From: Escherichia coli | GTDB taxonomy: Bacteria; Pseudomonadota; Gammaproteobacteria; Enterobacterales; Enterobacteriaceae | Reading direction: 5' to 3' (one strand) | Assembly (NCBI RefSeq): GCF_003334255.1 | Contig: NZ_QOWU01000009.1 | DNA length: 64,000 nt | Part shown: positions 53,216 to 63,200 of the stretch, one piece after another | Position numbering within the stretch: the stretch's first letter is position 1 | Layout of the letters: each line of letters opens with the position of its first letter | The notes under the pieces: model-generated | The model's input: only the letters and a program-made list of their open reading frames with translations | The model's database searches: none | What the model was told of the DNA's origin: nothing | Made by a program: the position numbers and the translations under genes

Positions 53216-53584
53216 TTACTTTTTCGTTTCGGGCGTCGGATAAACAGCCAGATAAACGTAACCACAGCTGCTGAGGGTATCGGCTTCGCAGGTCAGCCCT
53301 CTGGCATACAGCGTGACGGTATGCTGATGGCGGGGATTCAGTTCACCGCTGGTAAGCATGAGTTCCAGTTGTTTCATCAGCAGCGGAAAGGCCTGCTCCA
53401 GATGGTAGGCATCCGCGTCGCTGAACTGTCCTCTGATACCGGCGCGGTCGGCAAGGTAATGCAACCGGTTACCCTCCTGCACCAGACGTGCCCCGAAACA
53501 GGGCGTCACGGTACAGGGCAGTCCCCACCAGATGCGGTTGTTATGGTCGTCGGGATAATTTGTCTCATGGCGCGAGTCTGACAC
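53216..53584 (-). CDS. CbeA/YeeU/YfjZ-family antitoxin
   Basis: About 122 aa from a GTG at 53584 (..RIWWGLPCTVTPCFGARLVQEGNRLHYLADRAGIRG...LAVYPTPETKK); 89 bp upstream of the toxin. The ORF track's 158-aa ATG version (to 53692) would overlap the next gene. Confidence 0.8.
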   Translation of the reverse strand: MSDSRHETNYPDDHNNRIWWGLPCTVTPCFGARLVQEGNRLHYLADRAGIRGQFSDADAYHLEQAFPLLMKQLELMLTSGELNPRHQHTVTLYARGLTCEADTLSSCGYVYLAVYPTPETKK

Positions 53585-53633
53585 GATAAAATCCTTACAG
53601 AAAATCGATGAATGATAGTTTAACGATGACAGG

Positions 53634-54278
53634 TCAGCCGGCGTGGAGACCGGCTTCGGTGAAGGTATATGCATTGATGTGAATGGCCTCATCTACAGCG
53701 GCGTCTGAGGTCAGCCAGTCGTACTCGTTTTCCAGCTGGCGGTACAGCCAGAAGGCCAGGTCGCGCAGGGCTTCGCTGACAGCGGCTTCCGCATCGGCTG
53801 TCAGTGCCTGACCAGTCGGACTGTTCCGGGTGACGGTGATATCCATGCTGTACGGATGGCAGTAACGTCCCCGGTGACTGATTTCAGCCTGTAACTGCCA
53901 GAAGTTACGCTTCTGTACCGCCTGCAGGGCATCCGCGATACGATGAAGCTCACGGTCCTGCGGGGCATATTCCCTGATTTTCCGGGGGGCCGCTGGCTGC
54001 CAGTGCCAGCGCCCTTCAAAGCAGGCTCCGTCCCCCTGGCTGCAGAATCCGCTGAACCAGATGCACGGCTCTTCCATAAACCTGCCGTTGCTGAGCCGGA
54101 AAACGCGCTGGCGGAGGTCAATCCCGAAAATGCCACAGACCGCCCTGAAGTCCTCATACACGTTTTCATACCAGTTGCTGTCAGCATGATGCTGACGGTA
54201 CCAGTCGCGGGCTTTTTCCTGTGCGGTGGCGGATAGCTCATTCAGTGTATACACGGTGGAGGTGATAATTCTGCTCAT
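53634..54278 (-). CDS. Hypothetical protein, 214 aa, Trp/Tyr-rich and acidic, family not recognised; lies between DUF987 and the antitoxin
   Basis: ORF MSRIITSTVYTLNELSATAQEKARDWYRQHHADSNWYENVYEDF..., tightly packed (18 bp after the DUF987 stop, 49 bp before the antitoxin GTG). Confidence 0.5.
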   Translation of the reverse strand: MSRIITSTVYTLNELSATAQEKARDWYRQHHADSNWYENVYEDFRAVCGIFGIDLRQRVFRLSNGRFMEEPCIWFSGFCSQGDGACFEGRWHWQPAAPRKIREYAPQDRELHRIADALQAVQKRNFWQLQAEISHRGRYCHPYSMDITVTRNSPTGQALTADAEAAVSEALRDLAFWLYRQLENEYDWLTSDAAVDEAIHINAYTFTEAGLHAG

Positions 54279-54296
54279 CTGAATGCCCTTCCTGAT

Positions 54297-54518
54297 TCAG
54301 TTCAGGGTGACGCTCATCAGCCGGACATACGGGCCAAAACTGTCCTTATGGCGTTCAGCAAACACGGCCAGCACACCGGGAATATCCTGCACTTCACGAC
54401 CGGTATACGTTTCAGTGCTGCCGTGCCAGCGGTATTTGCCGGTACAGAACGGAAAAAGACGGGATGCAGGATGCTGTTGGTGAATACGCATGGCTTCACC
54501 ACGGGTGATGATTTTCAT
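54297..54518 (-). CDS. DUF987 protein (YeeT/YpjJ/YkfH family)
   Basis: 73 aa, MKIITRGEAMRIHQQHPASRLFPFCTGKYRWHGSTETYTGREVQDIPGVLAVFAERHK..., in the conserved slot after the RadC-like gene. Confidence 0.65.
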   Translation of the reverse strand: MKIITRGEAMRIHQQHPASRLFPFCTGKYRWHGSTETYTGREVQDIPGVLAVFAERHKDSFGPYVRLMSVTLN

Positions 54519-54580
54519 AATGGGATACCTCTGAAGACAGAAGATAAAAGTGAAAACAAGCGTGATGTGGTTGTGACGGG

Positions 54581-55057
54581 TTAAAGCAGACCATGTTCGG
54601 CAAAGGAGAAAACCTGGCTGCCACCGACTATCAGATGGTCCGGCACCCGGATATCCACCAGGCCCAGTGCCTGTACCAGACGTTCCGTGATAAGGCGGTC
54701 TGCCTTGCTGGGTGTGACTTCACCGGACGGGTGATTGTGCGCCAGTACCACGGCAGCGGCATTGTGGTACAGGGCGCGTTTAATCACTTCCCGGGGATGG
54801 ACTTCCGTGCGGTTGATGGTGCCGGTGAAGAGGGTTTCACCGGCAATCAGCTGATTCTGGTTGTTCAGATACAGCACCCGGAACTCTTCACGCTCCAGTC
54901 CCGCCATGTTCAGAATCAGCCATTCTCGTGCCGCACGGGTGGAGGTGAAGGCCACGCCGGGTTCATGAAGATGGCGGTCCAGGGTTTTCAGGGCCCGCTG
55001 AATGAGGCTGCGCTCGCCGGGCGTCATCTCTCCTGGCAGAAAGGAAAGCTGTTGCAT
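54581..55057 (-). CDS. RadC-like JAB/MPN-domain protein (YeeS/YfjY/YkfG family)
   Basis: 158 aa with JAMM motif HNHPSGEVTPSKAD. Confidence 0.8.
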   Translation of the reverse strand: MQQLSFLPGEMTPGERSLIQRALKTLDRHLHEPGVAFTSTRAAREWLILNMAGLEREEFRVLYLNNQNQLIAGETLFTGTINRTEVHPREVIKRALYHNAAAVVLAHNHPSGEVTPSKADRLITERLVQALGLVDIRVPDHLIVGGSQVFSFAEHGLL

Positions 55058-55071
55058 TGTTCCAGCCCCTT

Positions 55072-55551
55072 TCAGTCAATGATGCGCATAATGGCGTTGC
55101 ATTCCGGATGCTGCAGGGCGTAGTCCCGCAGACGGTAATAATGAACCGTCATGGCATAACACTCCGTGCGACAGGCATGATGACTGTACGTCATCAGACA
55201 GGCAGCAATGCCGGCGGCTTCCGGGCTCATTTCAGCACGGTTACCGTTCATGGCATTGAACAGTACCCATGTCTCGTCATCATCGTCATCCGGTTCGGGT
55301 GCCATAAATGCCCCGCCGTTGTTCAGGGTGTACAGATTCCAGATACCACCGCAGTAGTCTTCGCAAAGACGGTCCATCCAGCCGAAGACACGGGGTTCCA
55401 GGGTCACCCACTGTGGAATGAGGCCAAAATGTTGCGGCCAGAAGCTGATGCGCTGTTCATCAGGGATGAGGGTGGCAACAAGTCGGGACTGGTCACTCCC
55501 TGGTGCTGTGGCTGAAGAAAGAGCAGTTGTGTTCTGAGAAGCGATTTTCAT
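55072..55551 (-). CDS. Antirestriction protein, ArdB/KlcA type (YfjX/YafX family)
   Basis: About 160 aa from ATG at 55551 (MKIASQNTTALSSATAPGSDQSRLVATLIPDEQRISFWPQHFG...), with an acidic DDDDDE stretch; the ORF track's 183-aa version starts further upstream. Confidence 0.7.
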   Translation of the reverse strand: MKIASQNTTALSSATAPGSDQSRLVATLIPDEQRISFWPQHFGLIPQWVTLEPRVFGWMDRLCEDYCGGIWNLYTLNNGGAFMAPEPDDDDDETWVLFNAMNGNRAEMSPEAAGIAACLMTYSHHACRTECYAMTVHYYRLRDYALQHPECNAIMRIID

Positions 55552-55644
55552 GAGTGAAATCCTTGTAATGTGAATAAATGAGAGGGAGTAAAGGTCGGGA
55601 GCTGGCAACATCACGTTCATCACTGACCGTGAGACCCGGTAATA

Positions 55645-55890
55645 TCAGGGATGAATGATATTCGGCTGAAATTCCGGACAGCCGTACGCGTAACCGTTCC
55701 GGTCACAGACGGATGGCCAGATGCCATTGCCTGTACTCAGTCTGCACAGACTGAGTTCTCCGGGACGGTAAAGCAGACGGGTACACCAGGCGCACAGGTC
55801 ATCATCAGAAATGGAACGACATCCCGGCAGCGCCTCCGGGGCGTCGGGTGATACGGGTGCCTGAATCACGCCTTCAGGGATATGTTTCAT
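55645..55890 (-). CDS. Small Cys-rich protein, DUF905-like (YkfF/YfjW slot)
   Basis: About 81 aa from ATG at 55890, overlapping the DUF932 stop by 1 nt (TGATG), suggesting translational coupling. Family assignment is by position and size only. Confidence 0.45.
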   Translation of the reverse strand: MKHIPEGVIQAPVSPDAPEALPGCRSISDDDLCAWCTRLLYRPGELSLCRLSTGNGIWPSVCDRNGYAYGCPEFQPNIIHP

Positions 55891-56708
55891 CAGCGCATGC
55901 TCTCCAGCAGCGTTTCTGCCATCACCCACAATGCGCGGTTGAGCTTAATATCGGTGTCGATGCTGTGAATGGCACGGGTATGGATACGTTTTCCTTTAGC
56001 GCTGCGACCTGAAATTCCGCCTTTCAGCATATTCTCCTGAATGGTCTGATAAGCACTCCACAGGTCCTTACCGTAATCTTCCCGGCGTCGTGGCGTCAGA
56101 ATGTCGGCGGTGGTGACGGGCTGATGTTCGTCACCATAACGGTAAGTCAGTGCCGCCTGTGCCAGCGCCTGGCGTGCCGGTGGCGGCAGGACCAGCGACT
56201 GCATGGCATCACGTTTCTCTTCAATCCGGTCAAAAACCTCCACCACCTCGTAAGCCCCTTCAATGACTCTGTCCACCACATTTCCCCGGTGTGGAACACG
56301 CACTTCCCCCAGAGACTGACCACAGACGCACCCGTTCTGGCAGACGAACCGGAAGTAACCCGGCAGCATCTGGTAGCTGGAGGTACCGTCATGGGAGTTG
56401 AGCAGAATGATTTCAGGGACATGTTCTCCGTTTATCTCTCCGGCCCGCCGCAGACGCAGCATGTGTTTGGTGTATTCCCGGCGGCCCGGGTCGCGCACAC
56501 GGGTCTGGCAGGCGAAAAAGGGCTGGAAGCCTTCCCGCTGCAGACTTTCCAGTACGGTGATGGTGGGGATGTACGTATAGTTCTGGCTTCGGGACGTGTG
56601 TTTCTCTTCCCCGAAAATCCCCGGCACATGGTGCATCAGCTCTTCATGTGTCAGCGGACGGTCACGGCGTATCTGGTTCGCATAACCAAAACGACTGACT
56701 AATTGCAT
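55890..56708 (-). CDS. DUF932 protein (YfjQ/YafZ family)
   Basis: 272 aa, MQLVSRFGYANQIRRDRPLTHEELMHHVPGIFGEEKHTSRSQNYTYIPT..., in the conserved CP4-type position. Confidence 0.65.
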   Translation of the reverse strand: MQLVSRFGYANQIRRDRPLTHEELMHHVPGIFGEEKHTSRSQNYTYIPTITVLESLQREGFQPFFACQTRVRDPGRREYTKHMLRLRRAGEINGEHVPEIILLNSHDGTSSYQMLPGYFRFVCQNGCVCGQSLGEVRVPHRGNVVDRVIEGAYEVVEVFDRIEEKRDAMQSLVLPPPARQALAQAALTYRYGDEHQPVTTADILTPRRREDYGKDLWSAYQTIQENMLKGGISGRSAKGKRIHTRAIHSIDTDIKLNRALWVMAETLLESMR

Positions 56709-57118
56709 ACTTTGCTCCTTATCGGTGGTTAAGATTTACTGGTGCAACAAATGAAAAAAGCCGCGTCTCCCGGAGAAGACGCGGCCTGATGGATGAAATC
56801 AATGAAGTTTATTGTCTGAGAAGCCCTCCACTGGCGAGCCACGCATTAAGCTGTTTTCCGGCATCAGCTTCAGAGTTCCGGCAGCGTCAGCGTCGCTGAC
56901 CTTCCGCGTTGCGGATAACCCGACGGAAATGCATTCCCGGGTCATCCTGGATAAACACATTGCGGTAAGCGGTTATGACAGCAACCGCCTGCCCGTATGA
57001 GAAAGATCCTTCAGCCAGGACATACTCTGTGTGTAACCCGGCATATCTGGTTTCTCCTGATAAATAGCCTCTGCCATACGTTGTGGCAGAGGCTGAAGCA
57101 TGAAACTGACTTCAGGGA

Positions 57119-57574
57119 TCAGTTAACATTTTTTCCGGAAACGGTAATCAGCAGTGGATGGTAGTCCTGGGGATCGAAAACCGATAACGGCAGACTGACA
57201 CGATGGCCGTTACTTTCTTCAGTTGCTTTAATGATTTCGGTTGTGGCGACATTTTCCACGCACTCCGTTTCCAGAAATGCGTCTGTGGTTCGCGTGGCAT
57301 TACTGTCACCAAAGGCTTCCGTTTCCATTTTTCTGGTCACCAGCGTCTGACCATATTTGTCTTTGAGTTGCAGAGTGATGGTGAGGGGGCCAAATCCTTC
57401 ATCGTTTCCGCCATTATCCAGTCGGAACTGGTAAGCACAAATATTTCCCGGGAGCCATATCGTATCTGTATTGCGTATACTGATGTAACGTTGATCCTGT
57501 GCCCGGAGTGGGGCAGACCACGTTAACCCCAGAATGACGCCAGTAATAATGCAGGTTTTGAACAGGTGAATCAT
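57119..57574 (-). CDS. Secreted/periplasmic hypothetical protein, 151 aa (YfjT-like)
   Basis: N-terminal signal peptide MIHLFKTCIITGVILGLTWSAPLRAQ; 75 bp downstream of the YeeR-like gene. Confidence 0.5.
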   Translation of the reverse strand: MIHLFKTCIITGVILGLTWSAPLRAQDQRYISIRNTDTIWLPGNICAYQFRLDNGGNDEGFGPLTITLQLKDKYGQTLVTRKMETEAFGDSNATRTTDAFLETECVENVATTEIIKATEESNGHRVSLPLSVFDPQDYHPLLITVSGKNVN

Positions 57575-57649: not shown

Positions 57650-60172
57650 TTATGCCGGGAGCTCCGGGGGGAATGCTTCTTCCAGCCGGTTAACCATCTT
57701 GCCGAGATGGGATGCATCATATTCCATGACGGGGCGTTGCCTGATGATACTGACCACCAGTGGTTTGATTAACATATTGGTCGCGGCCCGTTGTTGTATA
57801 CCGGCGGCGAAAATGATCTCCAGAGCATTCTGATCGATAACACGGGCCAGATTCGCGTTCAGATTTTCAATCTCATGTCCGGTCAGCAGGAAACTGCCGG
57901 CAAGCCATGTCACCTGCTCCTGAATCATTGCCAGAATTTTGACGCGATCTTCTTCAACCAGCGCTCCGGCAATTTTTCCTGATACAGTGGAGGCAATCAT
58001 TCCCCCCAGAACACCGCCAACCACACGCCCTGTCAGTGCACCAAATGGTCCCAGTGGACTGAACAATATCCCGCCCGCCACTGACCCGACAGCACCACCT
58101 GCCACACCGGAAGATGCCACGGCAAGATTCCTGATGAACTGCGCACCGGAGATCCGTCCCCGCAACATTTTGATCATGTCAGGGCCGGTTGTGACAGCTA
58201 CCAGTGCCAGAGATGTCACCAGCGTACCCTTCATCACTTTGTTCAGGGCACTGATATTTCCTGCACCGGTCCCCTTCTGAAGCGCCTGCCGGACAGTCGG
58301 GCTGGCCGTCGAAAAATCAATATGCTTCAGCATACCCTGAACAACAGTGAGCCGGTGAAGTTGCTGGGTTGTAACGTAGACAGCCAGTGTGCGGGTGAAG
58401 GTTTTTCCTGCCTGGACAGCAGCTGTCTGCAGGGCAGCATCGCGATCGCCGGTGCTGAGCCAGAAGACCGATGCCGTCAGGGCAAAACTGATCCCTCCGG
58501 CCGCCAGACTGACAACCGACCCCTCGGCAATATCATAAGTGACCGATTCGATGGTCCCGAACCGGGTGATATTACGGGCCTGGGTATAAGTCAGATGTCC
58601 CCGACGAATCAGCCGGGACGCTTCTGCGGGATCGGTTACACCGGGTACTTTACCTTCGCGGATCTTATTCTTCATGGTTTCCACAGCGCCGGCATACTGA
58701 TCACGGGGGACTTCCAGTTGCATGGGACCATGATTTCCCATGTAACGATACTGTCCGTTTTGTCCGTCGAATGCCGCACCGACGCTACGGGCTGCAGTTG
58801 AACAATATTTCGTCTGGATTTCTGTTCCGCTGACCAGTCTGTCTGCTCCATTTCTGGCATTATTATCACCGAGGATCCGTGCGTTTTTCAGACGGACTCT
58901 GTCGACAATATGGTTTCCCCGTTCAGCGGCAAACCCATGTCCCTGCCCTCCGGAAGCAAACATTTTCTCATTTGTACTCCAGGTTTCCGGCAGTTTCATG
59001 AGAATCAGACCATTCGCCGTTGCATCGGAAATAAAACCGGTGTAAGAACGTTCATAAATGTCCTGACACAGTGTTTCTGTTTCGCGACAAAGAGAGGAGC
59101 AGTACCATTCCGGATCCGGCTTATGATTTTCCGGGGCATGATGTACTTCTGTCAGCCCGCAGGAGGCACAGATACGAAGCTCATCCACGTGGTGGAATGA
59201 TACAAAACGGCGGCCTTCTGAAAAGGGGTACCAGTCACCGCCGTCCAGGCAACGATCGAGAAAATCGTCATTCGCTTCCGGTGATAAATTCAGGCGGTTC
59301 CGGAAGAGGGTTTTCAGTTCATCAGGGGTAAATGACAGGCTCTCTCTCAGCTTTTCGTTGAAACCCGCCATGTTTCTTTCATACCAGGCATTGTCCAGTA
59401 GCCAGTTTCCGTCTGCCAGTTCAAATTCCCTCAGTTCTCCCCGGGAAATCCGTTGAGAAATGAGTGTCAGCCAGATGCGCTCCGTCAGCGTTTCAGGAAG
59501 GCTGTAATCGTTTTGCAAACTGCTCAGCCATGATTTACTGTTGAGCACCGGTTGTTCTTCCAGTGTCTGGCTGATGGCACTGGTCAGTCTTTTCAGCGCC
59601 TGGATCTGGCTGGCCGCCCATAGCAGCGTCACTAATGCAGCCAGCCAGTACAACAACCCGCCCCACCACATCAGTGAGGGTGAAATATCGAACTGCAATG
59701 CGATCAATGGTGCGTATGCAGAACACGCCATAAGGAAAAAAGCAGTATAAAAACAGCAGTAATACCCGTTAATTTCCTTGCTGATATCTTCAGGTGTGAG
59801 CCCGTTCTGCTGAATGGTTCTTATCTGCACGGGAAGAGCCAGCAGACCAGCGGCGAGAGCGGTGGTCAGAATAAATTTTACAGAGTCAAAAGTATGAGCC
59901 TCCAGTGCGATATGTTTACCATCAAGTCCCCACATGAAGCTGATGATCATTCCGGCAATCGTCAGAAATACGCCTGCCAGCCAGCGAATATGGAATAACC
60001 GGGTTATGCGTTCAGTGATATAGCCAGCCAGTAAAGCCGGACCGAACAGACACAGCAATACGAATCCTGCCAGCGCAGACGCCGTGCTGGTTAATGCTCT
60101 GAACAAAAGGCGAAGAATGGCAAATCCTGCGATCAGCAGAATCAGCGCGCCGACTATCTGTAACATAGTCAC
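57650..60172 (-). CDS. Full-length YeeR-like inner membrane protein, 840 aa
   Basis: N-terminal about 200 aa with multiple hydrophobic helices, a central region with a CxxC...CxxxC cluster (CASCGLTEVHH...CSSLC), and a C-terminal glycine-zipper-like hydrophobic region; N-terminus resembles K-12 YeeR as I recall it. Confidence 0.6.
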   Translation of the reverse strand: MTMLQIVGALILLIAGFAILRLLFRALTSTASALAGFVLLCLFGPALLAGYITERITRLFHIRWLAGVFLTIAGMIISFMWGLDGKHIALEAHTFDSVKFILTTALAAGLLALPVQIRTIQQNGLTPEDISKEINGYYCCFYTAFFLMACSAYAPLIALQFDISPSLMWWGGLLYWLAALVTLLWAASQIQALKRLTSAISQTLEEQPVLNSKSWLSSLQNDYSLPETLTERIWLTLISQRISRGELREFELADGNWLLDNAWYERNMAGFNEKLRESLSFTPDELKTLFRNRLNLSPEANDDFLDRCLDGGDWYPFSEGRRFVSFHHVDELRICASCGLTEVHHAPENHKPDPEWYCSSLCRETETLCQDIYERSYTGFISDATANGLILMKLPETWSTNEKMFASGGQGHGFAAERGNHIVDRVRLKNARILGDNNARNGADRLVSGTEIQTKYCSTAARSVGAAFDGQNGQYRYMGNHGPMQLEVPRDQYAGAVETMKNKIREGKVPGVTDPAEASRLIRRGHLTYTQARNITRFGTIESVTYDIAEGSVVSLAAGGISFALTASVFWLSTGDRDAALQTAAVQAGKTFTRTLAVYVTTQQLHRLTVVQGMLKHIDFSTASPTVRQALQKGTGAGNISALNKVMKGTLVTSLALVAVTTGPDMIKMLRGRISGAQFIRNLAVASSGVAGGAVGSVAGGILFSPLGPFGALTGRVVGGVLGGMIASTVSGKIAGALVEEDRVKILAMIQEQVTWLAGSFLLTGHEIENLNANLARVIDQNALEIIFAAGIQQRAATNMLIKPLVVSIIRQRPVMEYDASHLGKMVNRLEEAFPPELPA

Positions 60173-60286: not shown

Positions 60287-63200
60287 TCAGAAGGTCACAT
60301 TCAGCGTGGCCTGACTGTTATAACCTTCAGCGCTGCTGCCGTTGATGCTGTGGGCATAACCGGCCTGAACGCCCAGGGTGATATTTTCCCGGACACGGGC
60401 TTCCAGTCCGGCCTGCAGATCCAGTGAAGTGCCATTCTGTGAGGGAGAGAACGTCATCCCGCTGCCTGCGGTGGAGGTCCCCACACGCATATCACCCCGG
60501 GAGCTGAAGGTGCGGATAACGGAAGGCTGTACCCACCAGTTCACCGGCAGTTCACGCACACTGTGTTTTGCACTGTCACGCAGGGGGGCACGGGATGAGG
60601 TGCCTTCACCAAAGGTCATATCGTTGTGGCTGCCCAGACGGAAGCCGGCACGCACATGTTGTGCACTGCCATGCCCGAACCTCACATAACCGGCGTTATC
60701 CTGGCCGTCATCCAGGGAGAGTCCCTGCCAGGTGTACTGCAGTTGTGGCTCCAGCATCAGGTTGTCAGTGATACTGAAGGGCAGACCGGTTTCCAGTGAG
60801 CCCAGCCAGCCCCAGCCCCGGACGCGGAAGTCGTTATTGTCCGATGACGCTTTCATGCTGTGGCGGGTTCCCTGTGCCACTATGTCAGCCCACAGGCCGG
60901 AGGAGGTGTGTGTCAGGTTCATATATCCGCCCAGGCTGCCGGCATCATCCCGGACCGTGCCGGCACGGGAGCCGTCATCATCCTTAACATCAACGGAAGA
61001 ATGGCCTGCAGCACCATATATCCCTGCGGTCACAGACATACCGGCAACCTCTGTTCTCAGCAGGTCACCCTCCAGGCGGACGAAGCCATAGCTGCCGCTG
61101 CTTTCCGGCGTGGCCCCACGGGCAATACCGCCGTTGTTATCGTGACCGAGATGGCCGCCCTGAATGCTGAGACGGACGCTGTTATTTTCACCGTTTACAC
61201 CGGTCTGATGGCTGCGTGAGCCTGCCAGAATCCGGTCATAGTCCATTGCCTGTGTCAGCATGGAGGCATACAGGGGGACTTCTGCACGATAAGCATTTTC
61301 ACTGCGCAGATACCAGCTCTCATCACTGTCCCGGTTGAGGGAGTAGTTAAAGGCACCGGCCTGCAGCCTGTTCCCCTGGACAAAGGCCCCTTCCTCCGTG
61401 GTGGCACCGTTAATGGCTTCCACCACCTGAATACCCTTACCGCTGGTCGCCAGCCCCGACGCACTGTTGCCAGCGTTCACCAGGTTCAGGATGGTTTTTC
61501 CGGTTGCCCTGCCACCGTCAATGACCAGTCTGTCAGCATTGTTCTGTGCCATATCCGGGCGTACACGCAGGCTGATGGTGCCATTCTGTCCGTTCAGGTT
61601 TTTCACTTTCAGGGTTGCCGGTACGAACTTCCCTGTGCGGGCGGAGGTGAAATGAATCTGTCCGGCATGGCTGAGGTCATCCACCACCGACTGAACCGTG
61701 GCGTTATCGGGGATATTCCAGGTGGCACCGGAGGCGAGAGTGACATTCGTGGGGGCAATGGCACCGTTCAGCACAGTGCTGCCGGTCAGCTTCAGGGCTG
61801 TACCGCGCTGAGCAATGACATCCGTGGTGACGGTACTGTCGTTCAGCGTCAGCGTGCCTTCATTCAGGTTGACGGCTTTCTGGGTGAGTGTGGTGTTGCT
61901 GACAGTGAGTGTGCCACTTCCTGATTTTTCCACGCTGCCGTTACCGGTGAGAGAACCTCCCTGCAGGAGTGCATCGCCTTCACGGATGGTCAGGGTATCG
62001 TTGTTCACCGTCTTCCCGGAAAGGGTAAGTATGGCACCGTTATTCAGCGTGGTGGTGCCCGCCAGTGTGCCGCCCCTGGCGGTGAACAGTCCGCCATTTA
62101 CCGTGGTATCCGTGGCCGTATCACCGGCGTTCAGCGTGAATGAACTGCCTTTTTCCAGCATCAGGGCATCCGCCTGACCGCCTCCGATACTGAATGCCTT
62201 TCCGTCGCTCCGGGTACCACTGACAGCGGCACCGGAATCGGCCAGCAGTACACCGCCATTTCCCATGGATACGGTGGTGGCGGTGCCACCGTTGCGGACA
62301 TCCAGCGTTCCGCCATCATCCACGCGGGTATTAGTGGCTGTGTGTCCGGTCAGCACATCCAGGCGTCCGCCATTTTCCAGTACGACATTATCAGCTTTAC
62401 CCTCCACAACAGAGAATGCTCCCAGGCGGTTTATGCCGGTAACGGTTGCAGCCGTACTGGTAACCAGTGCGCCGCCCTGCTTCAGGGTGACATTCGTGGC
62501 TGTACCACCGGCGTCCACCTGCAGTCTGCCCTTCTGATTAACGGTGGTATTCCCGGCCACCCCCCCGTTTTTGACAATCTGCCAGCCGTCACTGTTTACA
62601 ACAGTGCCAGACGCCGTACCGCCGTTGTGCACATACTGGTACCCCCCATTCAGCGTGGTATCCAGTGCGTGACCATGTACAGTCTGGTCGCCGCCGGCAT
62701 AAACCACAGTGGTATTTGCCGTTCCTTCAGCAGCCACAATCTGACGACCATTTTTATTGATGGTGGTGCGTACGGCATCTCCGTAGACGGTCTGCCCGGT
62801 ATCACCATTTTCCGCATCCGGTCCCCCTTCCGCGCCGGTATTCACAACCGTGTCGGTTGCCACTGCGCCGGATTTGATGGCCTGCCAGCCCTTCTCATTA
62901 ATGACGGTACCCGTTGCAATCCCGTCTTCATGTACCCACTGCTCACCGCCGTTCAGAGTGGTGTTCACTGCCTGCCCCTGAAGGCTCTGTCCGCCTCCGG
63001 CACTGATAACCGTGTCTGAAACGCTTCCTCCGGCATTCACTCTCTGAAGACCACCACCGGTGACAGTAGTGTTGTTGGCGGTACCGCCATTTTGTATCCA
63101 TTGGCCGCCGGTATTGGCCTCGTTATCCGGCCCATACTCCAGCCCGGTACTGATGGTCATTCCGTTGGCCGTACCGAAGACAATCTGGTTGTCATGATTT

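Follow-up and report, generated by a model that had tools for sequence, protein, structure and literature searches.

X214, a DUF8835-Family Gene beside CbtA/CbeA in Escherichia coli Islands, Belongs to the Backbone of Establishment Gene Arrays

Between the DUF987 gene and the CbeA antitoxin gene of an Escherichia coli genomic island stands a gene of 214 codons. Is it a part of the toxin–antitoxin (TA) module that it adjoins, and if not, to what does it belong? The gene, here called X214, lies at 53634–54278 (−) of the window, by which we mean the whole 64,000-nt stretch of DNA that was analyzed. A preliminary description, made from the sequence alone, had taken it for a gene inserted into a canonical module in which the antitoxin gene comes straight after DUF987, and had offered three readings of it: an extra antitoxin-like regulator, an anti-restriction factor, or a cargo defense gene.

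Results

X214 Is a Conserved Gene in a Co-directional Array

The preliminary account of the locus and of the protein's composition was accurate. X214 is tightly packed between DUF987 and cbeA, with gaps of 18 nt and 49 nt (Table 1), and its product is rich in Trp and Tyr (W 8, Y 10, F 10; 13% aromatic) and acidic (D+E 29 vs. K+R 22; pI 5.6), with no transmembrane or hydrophobic segment (top 19-residue Kyte–Doolittle mean 0.63). All genes from DUF932 through DUF4942 have the same orientation, and a consensus scan of the array strand from 52000 to 57200 found no sigma-70-like promoter; the stretch looks like one operon-like array. The DUF932 gene at its head is of the YubP/YafZ type, one of the foremost families in plasmid leading regions (PMC11541004, supplement 3). 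X214 has a G+C content of 58.3%, above that of both the module (53.7%) and the window (52.4%).

Table 1. Position of X214, its neighbors, and the island junction in the window
Feature	Position	Strand	Remark
X214, member of DUF8835 / PHROG 5162	53634–54278	−	645-nt ORF, ATG start, 214 aa
Shine–Dalgarno-like AGGAAGG, 8 nt 5′ of the X214 ATG	54287–54293	−	direct sequence reading
DUF987 (YeeT-like) gene, directly upstream of X214	54297–54518	−	stop 18 nt before X214 start
CbeA/YeeU-family type IV antitoxin gene, GTG start at 53584	53216–53584	−	49 nt downstream of X214
CbtA toxin gene	52749–53126	−	co-directional array with X214
RadC-like JAB-domain gene	54581–55057	−	co-directional array with X214
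KlcA/ArdB-type antirestriction gene	55072–55545	−	co-directional array with X214
DUF932 (YubP/YafZ-type) gene	55890–56708	−	head of the X214 array
Distal module genes, whole span	51114–52752	−	
DUF5983	52264–52752	−	distal part of the X214 module
DUF957	52047–52244	−	distal part of the X214 module
DUF4942	51114–51962	−	distal part of the X214 module
Left island junction	50908		blastn, K-12 ula region vs. window

Several features surround the array. Between it and a large 1,091-aa ORF at 60287–63562 lie two ORFs on the minus strand: one of 151 aa (57119–57574) whose start resembles a signal peptide, and one of 840 aa (57650–60172) with long hydrophobic stretches rich in Gly and Ala. On the other side, K-12 ula DNA matches the window at 47006–50907 only (blastn), the match ending 56 nt into ulaE, so that the left junction of the island, in the interval 50843–50920, falls within this gene. 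Neither ulaE nor ulaF was found in the remainder of the window, so the ascorbate operon is interrupted by the island, which continues beyond the window end. Within the array, the RadC-like gene has a relative of reported activity: RefSeq has renamed yfjX and yfjY of K-12 CP4-57 as lfgA and lfgB (locus L106, 3920–4869), and LfgB, the RadC-like protein of this type of module, reportedly acts as a protease on the antitoxin MqsA, which it cleaves (PMC10846083), which bears on the possible role of the RadC gene in the window.

X214 is a genuine gene, well above what a chance ORF would be. Its DNA is found at 80–100% identity in 2,001/5,426 complete E. coli genomes, and one genome may hold as many as 8 copies; these carriers, over a third of the total, include CFT073 and Nissle 1917. 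At least 80% of the gene is covered in 1,946/2,004 E. coli records, and the identical protein occurs on 313 contigs. Beyond E. coli, a scan of 1.84 billion 50%-identity cluster representatives returned 3,526 relatives at E ≤ 1e-3. Pairwise dN/dS ranges overall from 0.1 to 0.3, indicating purifying selection: 0.23 for copies within E. coli (dS 0.18), 0.17 for a pair of copies from Salmonella, and 0.1–0.2 between genera. The preliminary description had allowed for a spurious ORF lacking any conservation, and these figures remove that doubt. A neighbor-joining tree groups all enteric copies in a single clade, with the alphaproteobacterial clade as its sister.

Family Assignment and the Antitoxin Name

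X214 belongs to DUF8835 / PHROG 5162, a catalogued, uncharacterized family. The PHROG 5162 profile matches the full protein (E 3.3e-36; residues 2–210 vs. profile positions 2–195 of 201) and also matches distant bacterial members and phage copies, and 100% identical RefSeq genes are labeled either "DUF8835 domain-containing" (WP_016234190.1) or "hypothetical protein." The preliminary description could name no family for the protein, which is right insofar as no characterized family matches; the family and the exact protein were nonetheless already catalogued, and the gene as such is no discovery.

Searches for relatives of known function came back empty. X214 has no match in NCBIfam or in Pfam-A, in a release without a DUF8835 model; no PADLOC defense family matched at E ≤ 1; and single-sequence and profile searches of PDB chain sequences returned noise only. 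The structure matches of the AlphaFold model, a comparison that the preliminary description had proposed, include no solved fold relative. CbeA/YeeU structures are missing among the fold matches listed for the model, and AFDB50 gave X214's own family alone, under legacy names. In hhalign comparisons, probabilities were below 1% for CbeA (0.1%), KlcA (0.2%), ArdC-like (0.4%), CbtA, DUF987, DUF6915, DUF6878, toprim-like, and other neighbor families. Literature searches, which covered DUF8835 and its legacy name as well as the module families and the SQGDG motif, turned up neither a study of the protein nor an experimental datum for any family member.

Four further leads were set aside. The N-terminus weakly resembles PHROG 2321, "Ref-like RecA filament endonuclease" (E 0.029), a match that was not repeated in other family members. 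The homologue in Acinetobacter phage CP14 is labeled "RNA polymerase binding protein," and the neighboring annotation looks like positional transfer from T4. In this phage (L104, 3992–5986), the T4 names sliding clamp, clamp loader, and DNA polymerase sit on ORFs of 140–280 nt, and these T4-type replication gene names look like positional mis-transfers. An entry bearing the legacy name in a vesicle proteome of ETEC is RelB, which belongs to a family other than that of X214. Finally, leading-region family 394 of Samuel et al. shares the legacy name, and its identity with the X214 family could not be established.

The "antitoxin" name itself deserves comment. In some databases X214 goes under the name "antitoxin of the YeeV-YeeU system," the homologue in phage Muenster received its "YeeU-like antitoxin" label purely through BLAST name transfer, and the legacy "antitoxin" name has also been applied to RelB/StbD-type proteins. 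The name is unsupported for the X214 family and is no evidence on function. A type II antitoxin of the StbD/Phd/YefM/RelB kind would have about 80–100 aa; X214 has 214 aa, forms a compact alpha/beta domain in the predicted model, and contains no Pfam antitoxin domain. Nor does the arrangement of a type II antitoxin with its toxin directly downstream apply in the window, where the gene 3′ of X214 is cbeA and not a toxin. Our results argue for dropping this annotation from a family that comprises thousands of protein clusters beyond E. coli, that many databases mislabel in this way, and to which no solved structure is related.

A Deletion Scar in K-12

The K-12 CP4-44 layout without X214 derives from the layout with it. 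The order DUF987-then-antitoxin, which the preliminary description regarded as canonical, is found in K-12, where 73 nt of CP4-44 separate yeeT from cbeA (locus L105, 6040–6112); this spacer, however, holds a relic of X214. It opens with ATGAGCAGAATTATCGCCACTACC (MSRIIATT), which are codons 1–8 of X214, and its homology to the window returns about 26 nt 5′ of the cbeA GTG. Because the first eight codons are kept, the K-12 layout represents a deletion of ~0.64 kb. It is a deletion derivative, and X214 is no insertion, contrary to the earlier account. The spacer forms a 16-codon mini-ORF that ends just 5′ of cbeA.

Both states are widespread among E. coli. The deletion scar occurs at 3,181 places in 2,824/5,426 complete genomes, and intact X214 at 2,880 places, vs. 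12,925 places for DUF987. About 22% of DUF987 modules thus have an intact X214 and about 25% have the scar, while the remaining modules, of the CP4-6 or CP4-57 type, leave little space between DUF987 and the antitoxin and hold no relic. Other rearrangements were also seen in E. coli. Stop-loss read-through has produced X214–CbeA fusions of 342–343 aa (P0003, P0019, P0025, and others) on several contigs, including a 4.66-Mb genome; in one case a deletion has fused X214 with KlcA (P0038), and in another the N-terminus is duplicated (P0001). Together, these forms suggest that the X214 region is prone to rearrangement.

X214 in Alphaproteobacterial and Plasmid Arrays

Outside enterobacteria, X214 has a different and highly regular neighborhood. 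A scan of 100,044 species genomes yielded 582 confirmed X214 loci, and the neighbor counts that follow refer to the best 80 of these, 79 from Alphaproteobacteria and 1 from Salmonella. Only the Salmonella locus among these 80 carries CbtA, CbeA, DUF987, or enteric-type DUF932. Immediately upstream of X214 stands a DUF6915-type gene of about 140–160 aa (72/80), with an 8-nt stop/start overlap in the loci inspected. Farther upstream are a large ParB (59/80) and an ArdC-like antirestriction gene (45/80). Downstream are a methyltransferase with a strawberry-notch-type helicase (about 1,440 aa; 76/80), a toprim/primase-like gene (54/80), and DUF2493 (45/80). The gap between X214 and the methylase–helicase is at most 164 nt in 42/59 loci. 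Contigs from three metagenomic look-ups were too short to inform on context. The order in conjugative plasmids and ICEs of Alphaproteobacteria is ArdC – ParB – DUF6915 – X214 – methylase–helicase – toprim. On RepABC plasmids of Rhodobacterales, the order SSB – DUF932 – RadC – DUF6878 – ... – X214 – methylase/helicase – toprim parallels the enteric order DUF932 – KlcA – RadC – DUF987 – X214.

Many of these neighbors belong to known leading-region families. SSB, ParB, DUF932/YubP, DUF905/YubL, and KlcA are among the largest such families of plasmids (Samuel et al. 2024, PMC11541004, supplement 3). X214 is set co-directionally among leading-region families, namely SSB, ParB, DUF932, ArdC/KlcA, and methyltransferase, where "leading region" is judged from the neighboring families rather than from the position of oriT.

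The stretch just downstream of X214 also receives insertions. Plasmids of Thioclava and Celeribacter (L108, 20711–23825; L003, 8708–11822) carry MbcA/RES, DUF1778, and AbiEi/AbiEii between X214 and the methylase–helicase, and other inserts of 0.8–2.2 kb lie 3′ of X214 in 11/59 loci. This junction is a cargo hotspot. On a Neotabrizicola plasmid (L109, 24593–27171 and 5504–7452), the establishment array with X214 is flanked by a ubiquitin-like conjugation set (multiubiquitin, E2, ThiF, and DUF6527) and by deazaguanine-related genes (QueC-like and nucleoside 2-deoxyribosyltransferase).

Phage Homologues in Terminal Repeats or Near Genome Ends

Homologues of X214 occur in 78 phage records, among them Caulobacter and Brevundimonas jumbo phages, the PBECO4 and RaK2/K64-1/Muenster groups, 100-kb myoviruses of Acinetobacter, and Pseudomonas phage Lana. 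In several records the annotated terminal repeat spans the homologue, and in others the homologue is present in two copies or lies within a few kb of the genome end. In Muenster, whose repeat measures 20 kb, it is gene 6 counted from the left end of that repeat, and it is also found within the repeats of fENko-Kae01 and of Caulobacter jumbo phages. Such repeats are the first phage DNA to enter the cell.

Predicted Structure and Conserved Residues

AlphaFold2, run on a 123-sequence alignment, predicts X214 to be a single compact alpha/beta domain with high confidence (mean pLDDT 96.7, pTM 0.89). Across 123 diverse family members, residues E14, L15, G52, D108, Y139, H141, W177, and Y179 are at least 90% conserved, as is a Gly-rich loop, G77-F-x-x-Q81-G-D83-G-A-x-F-x-G89; the motifs E14-L15, G77–G89, Y139-x-H141, and W177-x-Y179 are all found in the protein of the window. 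The family as a whole is acidic (median pI 4.7, median net charge −17). Residues 1–57 alone, predicted to form an N-terminal strand and helical hairpin, match another uncharacterized phage family, PHROG 10310, in several members (E 1e-5 to 5e-9), which suggests an N-terminal module shared between the two families and fused to different C-terminal parts.

E. coli and alphaproteobacterial X214 proteins are 60–63% identical. Such identity across classes is unusually high for a counter-defense protein and counts against that reading. One speculation is that this identity, taken together with the Gly-rich loop and the polar residues that are invariant, reflects a defined site for ligand binding or catalysis with a highly conserved target; such a pattern would argue against a fast-evolving protein mimic.

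Relation to CbtA and CbeA

In enterobacteria, X214 and CbeA are close companions. A CbeA-family gene abuts X214 in all enteric loci sampled, in two gene orders. Layout A, DUF987–X214–CbeA–CbtA, is that of the window, CFT073, pB39_V, and a divergent E. coli island, while layout B, DUF987–CbeA(–CbeA)–X214–CbtA, is that of Klebsiella michiganensis and Salmonella. X214 directly precedes the toxin gene in layout B, and the cbeA stop overlaps the X214 start in Salmonella. Salmonella islands (L096, 5293–6004; L065, 7260–8004) have two tandem, overlapping, mutually divergent CbeA-family genes, followed by X214 and then cbtA, the first CbeA copy being only distantly like the second. The constant adjacency of cbeA and the X214–CbeA fusions hint at a local functional tie in enterics.

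One possibility is that X214 is a third component of the enterobacterial CbtA/CbeA module, for instance by acting as a chaperone, by providing a second antitoxin, or by tuning CbtA toxicity or CbeA activity. We consider this unlikely, even though the adjacency in both layouts and the natural fusions speak for it. CbtA and CbeA are absent at 79/79 alphaproteobacterial loci among the best 80 of the 582 confirmed loci, leaving Salmonella as 1/80 with the pair, and also from the plasmid contexts inspected and all phage copies. Even among E. coli DUF987 modules, about 78% lack an intact X214. The cbeA/cbtA pair of K-12 CP4-44 has no intact X214 and works without it; this pair was reportedly characterized experimentally by Masuda et al. 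in 2012 as a working TA. The negligible hhalign probabilities for both CbeA and CbtA count against a third component as well. AlphaFold2 gave no docking signal for an X214–linker–CbeA fusion (pTM 0.60), which weighs little because the CbeA half was poorly modeled (pLDDT about 50).

X214 is thus separable from the TA pair, as the alphaproteobacterial loci, most E. coli modules, and the K-12 pair all lack joint presence, and obligate pairing with a CbtA-family toxin gene is not what these loci display. The antitoxin-like regulator of the preliminary description is accordingly weak at best, and as to the co-occurrence with cbtA/cbeA that it asked about, cbeA is adjacent in every sampled enteric locus, and most DUF987 modules of E. 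coli lack an intact X214. CbeA and CbtA beside X214 appear to be cargo, like the other TA modules on alphaproteobacterial plasmids. A recurrent cargo slot downstream of X214 offers a simple explanation for both the enteric adjacency and the "antitoxin" misnomer.

Discussion

X214 is a conserved backbone gene of "establishment" arrays and not TA cargo. Its backbone position in these arrays, its presence in phage terminal repeats, and its conservation as a stand-alone gene lead us to infer a role in early establishment or counter-defense. Whether X214 is, as we propose, a stand-alone cytoplasmic protein that acts early after DNA entry to this end strikes us as an even call. Among the readings of the preliminary description, anti-restriction or establishment is the best supported by context, which includes ArdC, ParB, SSB, DUF932, KlcA, methylase–helicase, and the phage terminal repeats.

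Under this proposal of an early-acting establishment protein, X214 would be transcribed with its array shortly after the DNA of the element enters a new cell. The protein would then act alone on a highly conserved target, for example a core protein of the host or of its defenses, or a ligand of nucleotide or nucleic-acid type. A putative pocket, predicted from sequence conservation, would comprise the loop G77-F-x-S-Q-G-D-G-A-x-F-x-G89 together with E14, D108, and Y139-x-H141, and through it X214 would favor the survival and establishment of the entering DNA. Conjugation machinery is absent near X214 in chromosomal E. coli islands, and the "entry" role may be vestigial there.

A bolder and more tentative proposal, which we would sooner bet against than for, is that DUF8835 is a new class of early-acting counter-defense or host-takeover effector, with a fold not represented among solved structures, that acts via a conserved ligand-binding or catalytic pocket. 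As part of the same joint claim, and held just as tentatively, this class would be common to jumbo phages and to conjugative elements along with the relics of these in chromosomes, with a target conserved from Alpha- to Gammaproteobacteria. The array backbone, the K-12 scar, and the first-entering DNA of phages make X214 a concrete candidate for anti-defense and establishment screens.

Another explanation is that X214 serves as an accessory, such as a replication or modification cofactor, of the DUF6915, methylase–helicase, and toprim/primase machinery, and has been orphaned in E. coli islands. Its tight synteny with DUF6915 and the methylase–helicase is consistent with this, and its high conservation would fit a part in core DNA transactions. 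Nevertheless, purifying selection on X214 persists in enteric islands and in phages, where DUF6915 is absent, and no methylase–helicase stands beside X214 in the phage early regions inspected. We therefore regard an accessory role in DNA processing as improbable.

It is very unlikely that X214 is a cargo anti-phage defense gene of the island, which was the third reading of the preliminary description. Defense-related genes do occur nearby, with AbiE, RES toxins, and the ubiquitin-like system in CP4-type islands or alphaproteobacterial arrays. Against this reading, X214 itself matches no PADLOC model and occupies a fixed backbone position instead of a variable cargo slot, and phages themselves carry the family, in early or terminal-repeat regions of 78 records. 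Finally, X214 was deleted in the CP4-44 lineage, with the scar spread to 2,824 genomes, and many copies are truncated, yet a decaying relic or spurious ORF without function in E. coli is scarcely credible given dN/dS values of 0.23 within the species and 0.1–0.2 between genera, near-complete coverage in 1,946/2,004 records, identical proteins on 313 contigs, a ribosome-binding site, and a confidently predicted fold.

How does X214 compare with known systems? The type IV antitoxins of the CbeA/YeeU family (PF06154) are its neighbors in all sampled enteric loci, but X214 has no sequence or profile similarity to them and mostly occurs without any CbtA or CbeA. A second comparison is with phages. 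T5-like phages carry their pre-early genes in direct terminal repeats. Phage copies of X214 are similarly placed in terminal repeats near the genome end, a likeness of position alone, and X214 is not known to be homologous to any T5 pre-early protein. The antirestriction proteins KlcA/ArdB, ArdA, and ArdC differ from X214 in sequence, with no Pfam match and hhalign probabilities below 1% to KlcA and ArdC-like profiles; like X214, they are small, cytoplasmic, mostly acidic proteins from the same co-directional arrays of conjugative elements. F-like leading regions lack X214, which is carried by only 5 Escherichia plasmid records, whereas leading-region genes in general (SSB, PsiB, ParB-like, DUF932/YubP, and DUF905/YubL; PMC11541004) have neighbor families in common with the X214 array and share its one-directional organization.
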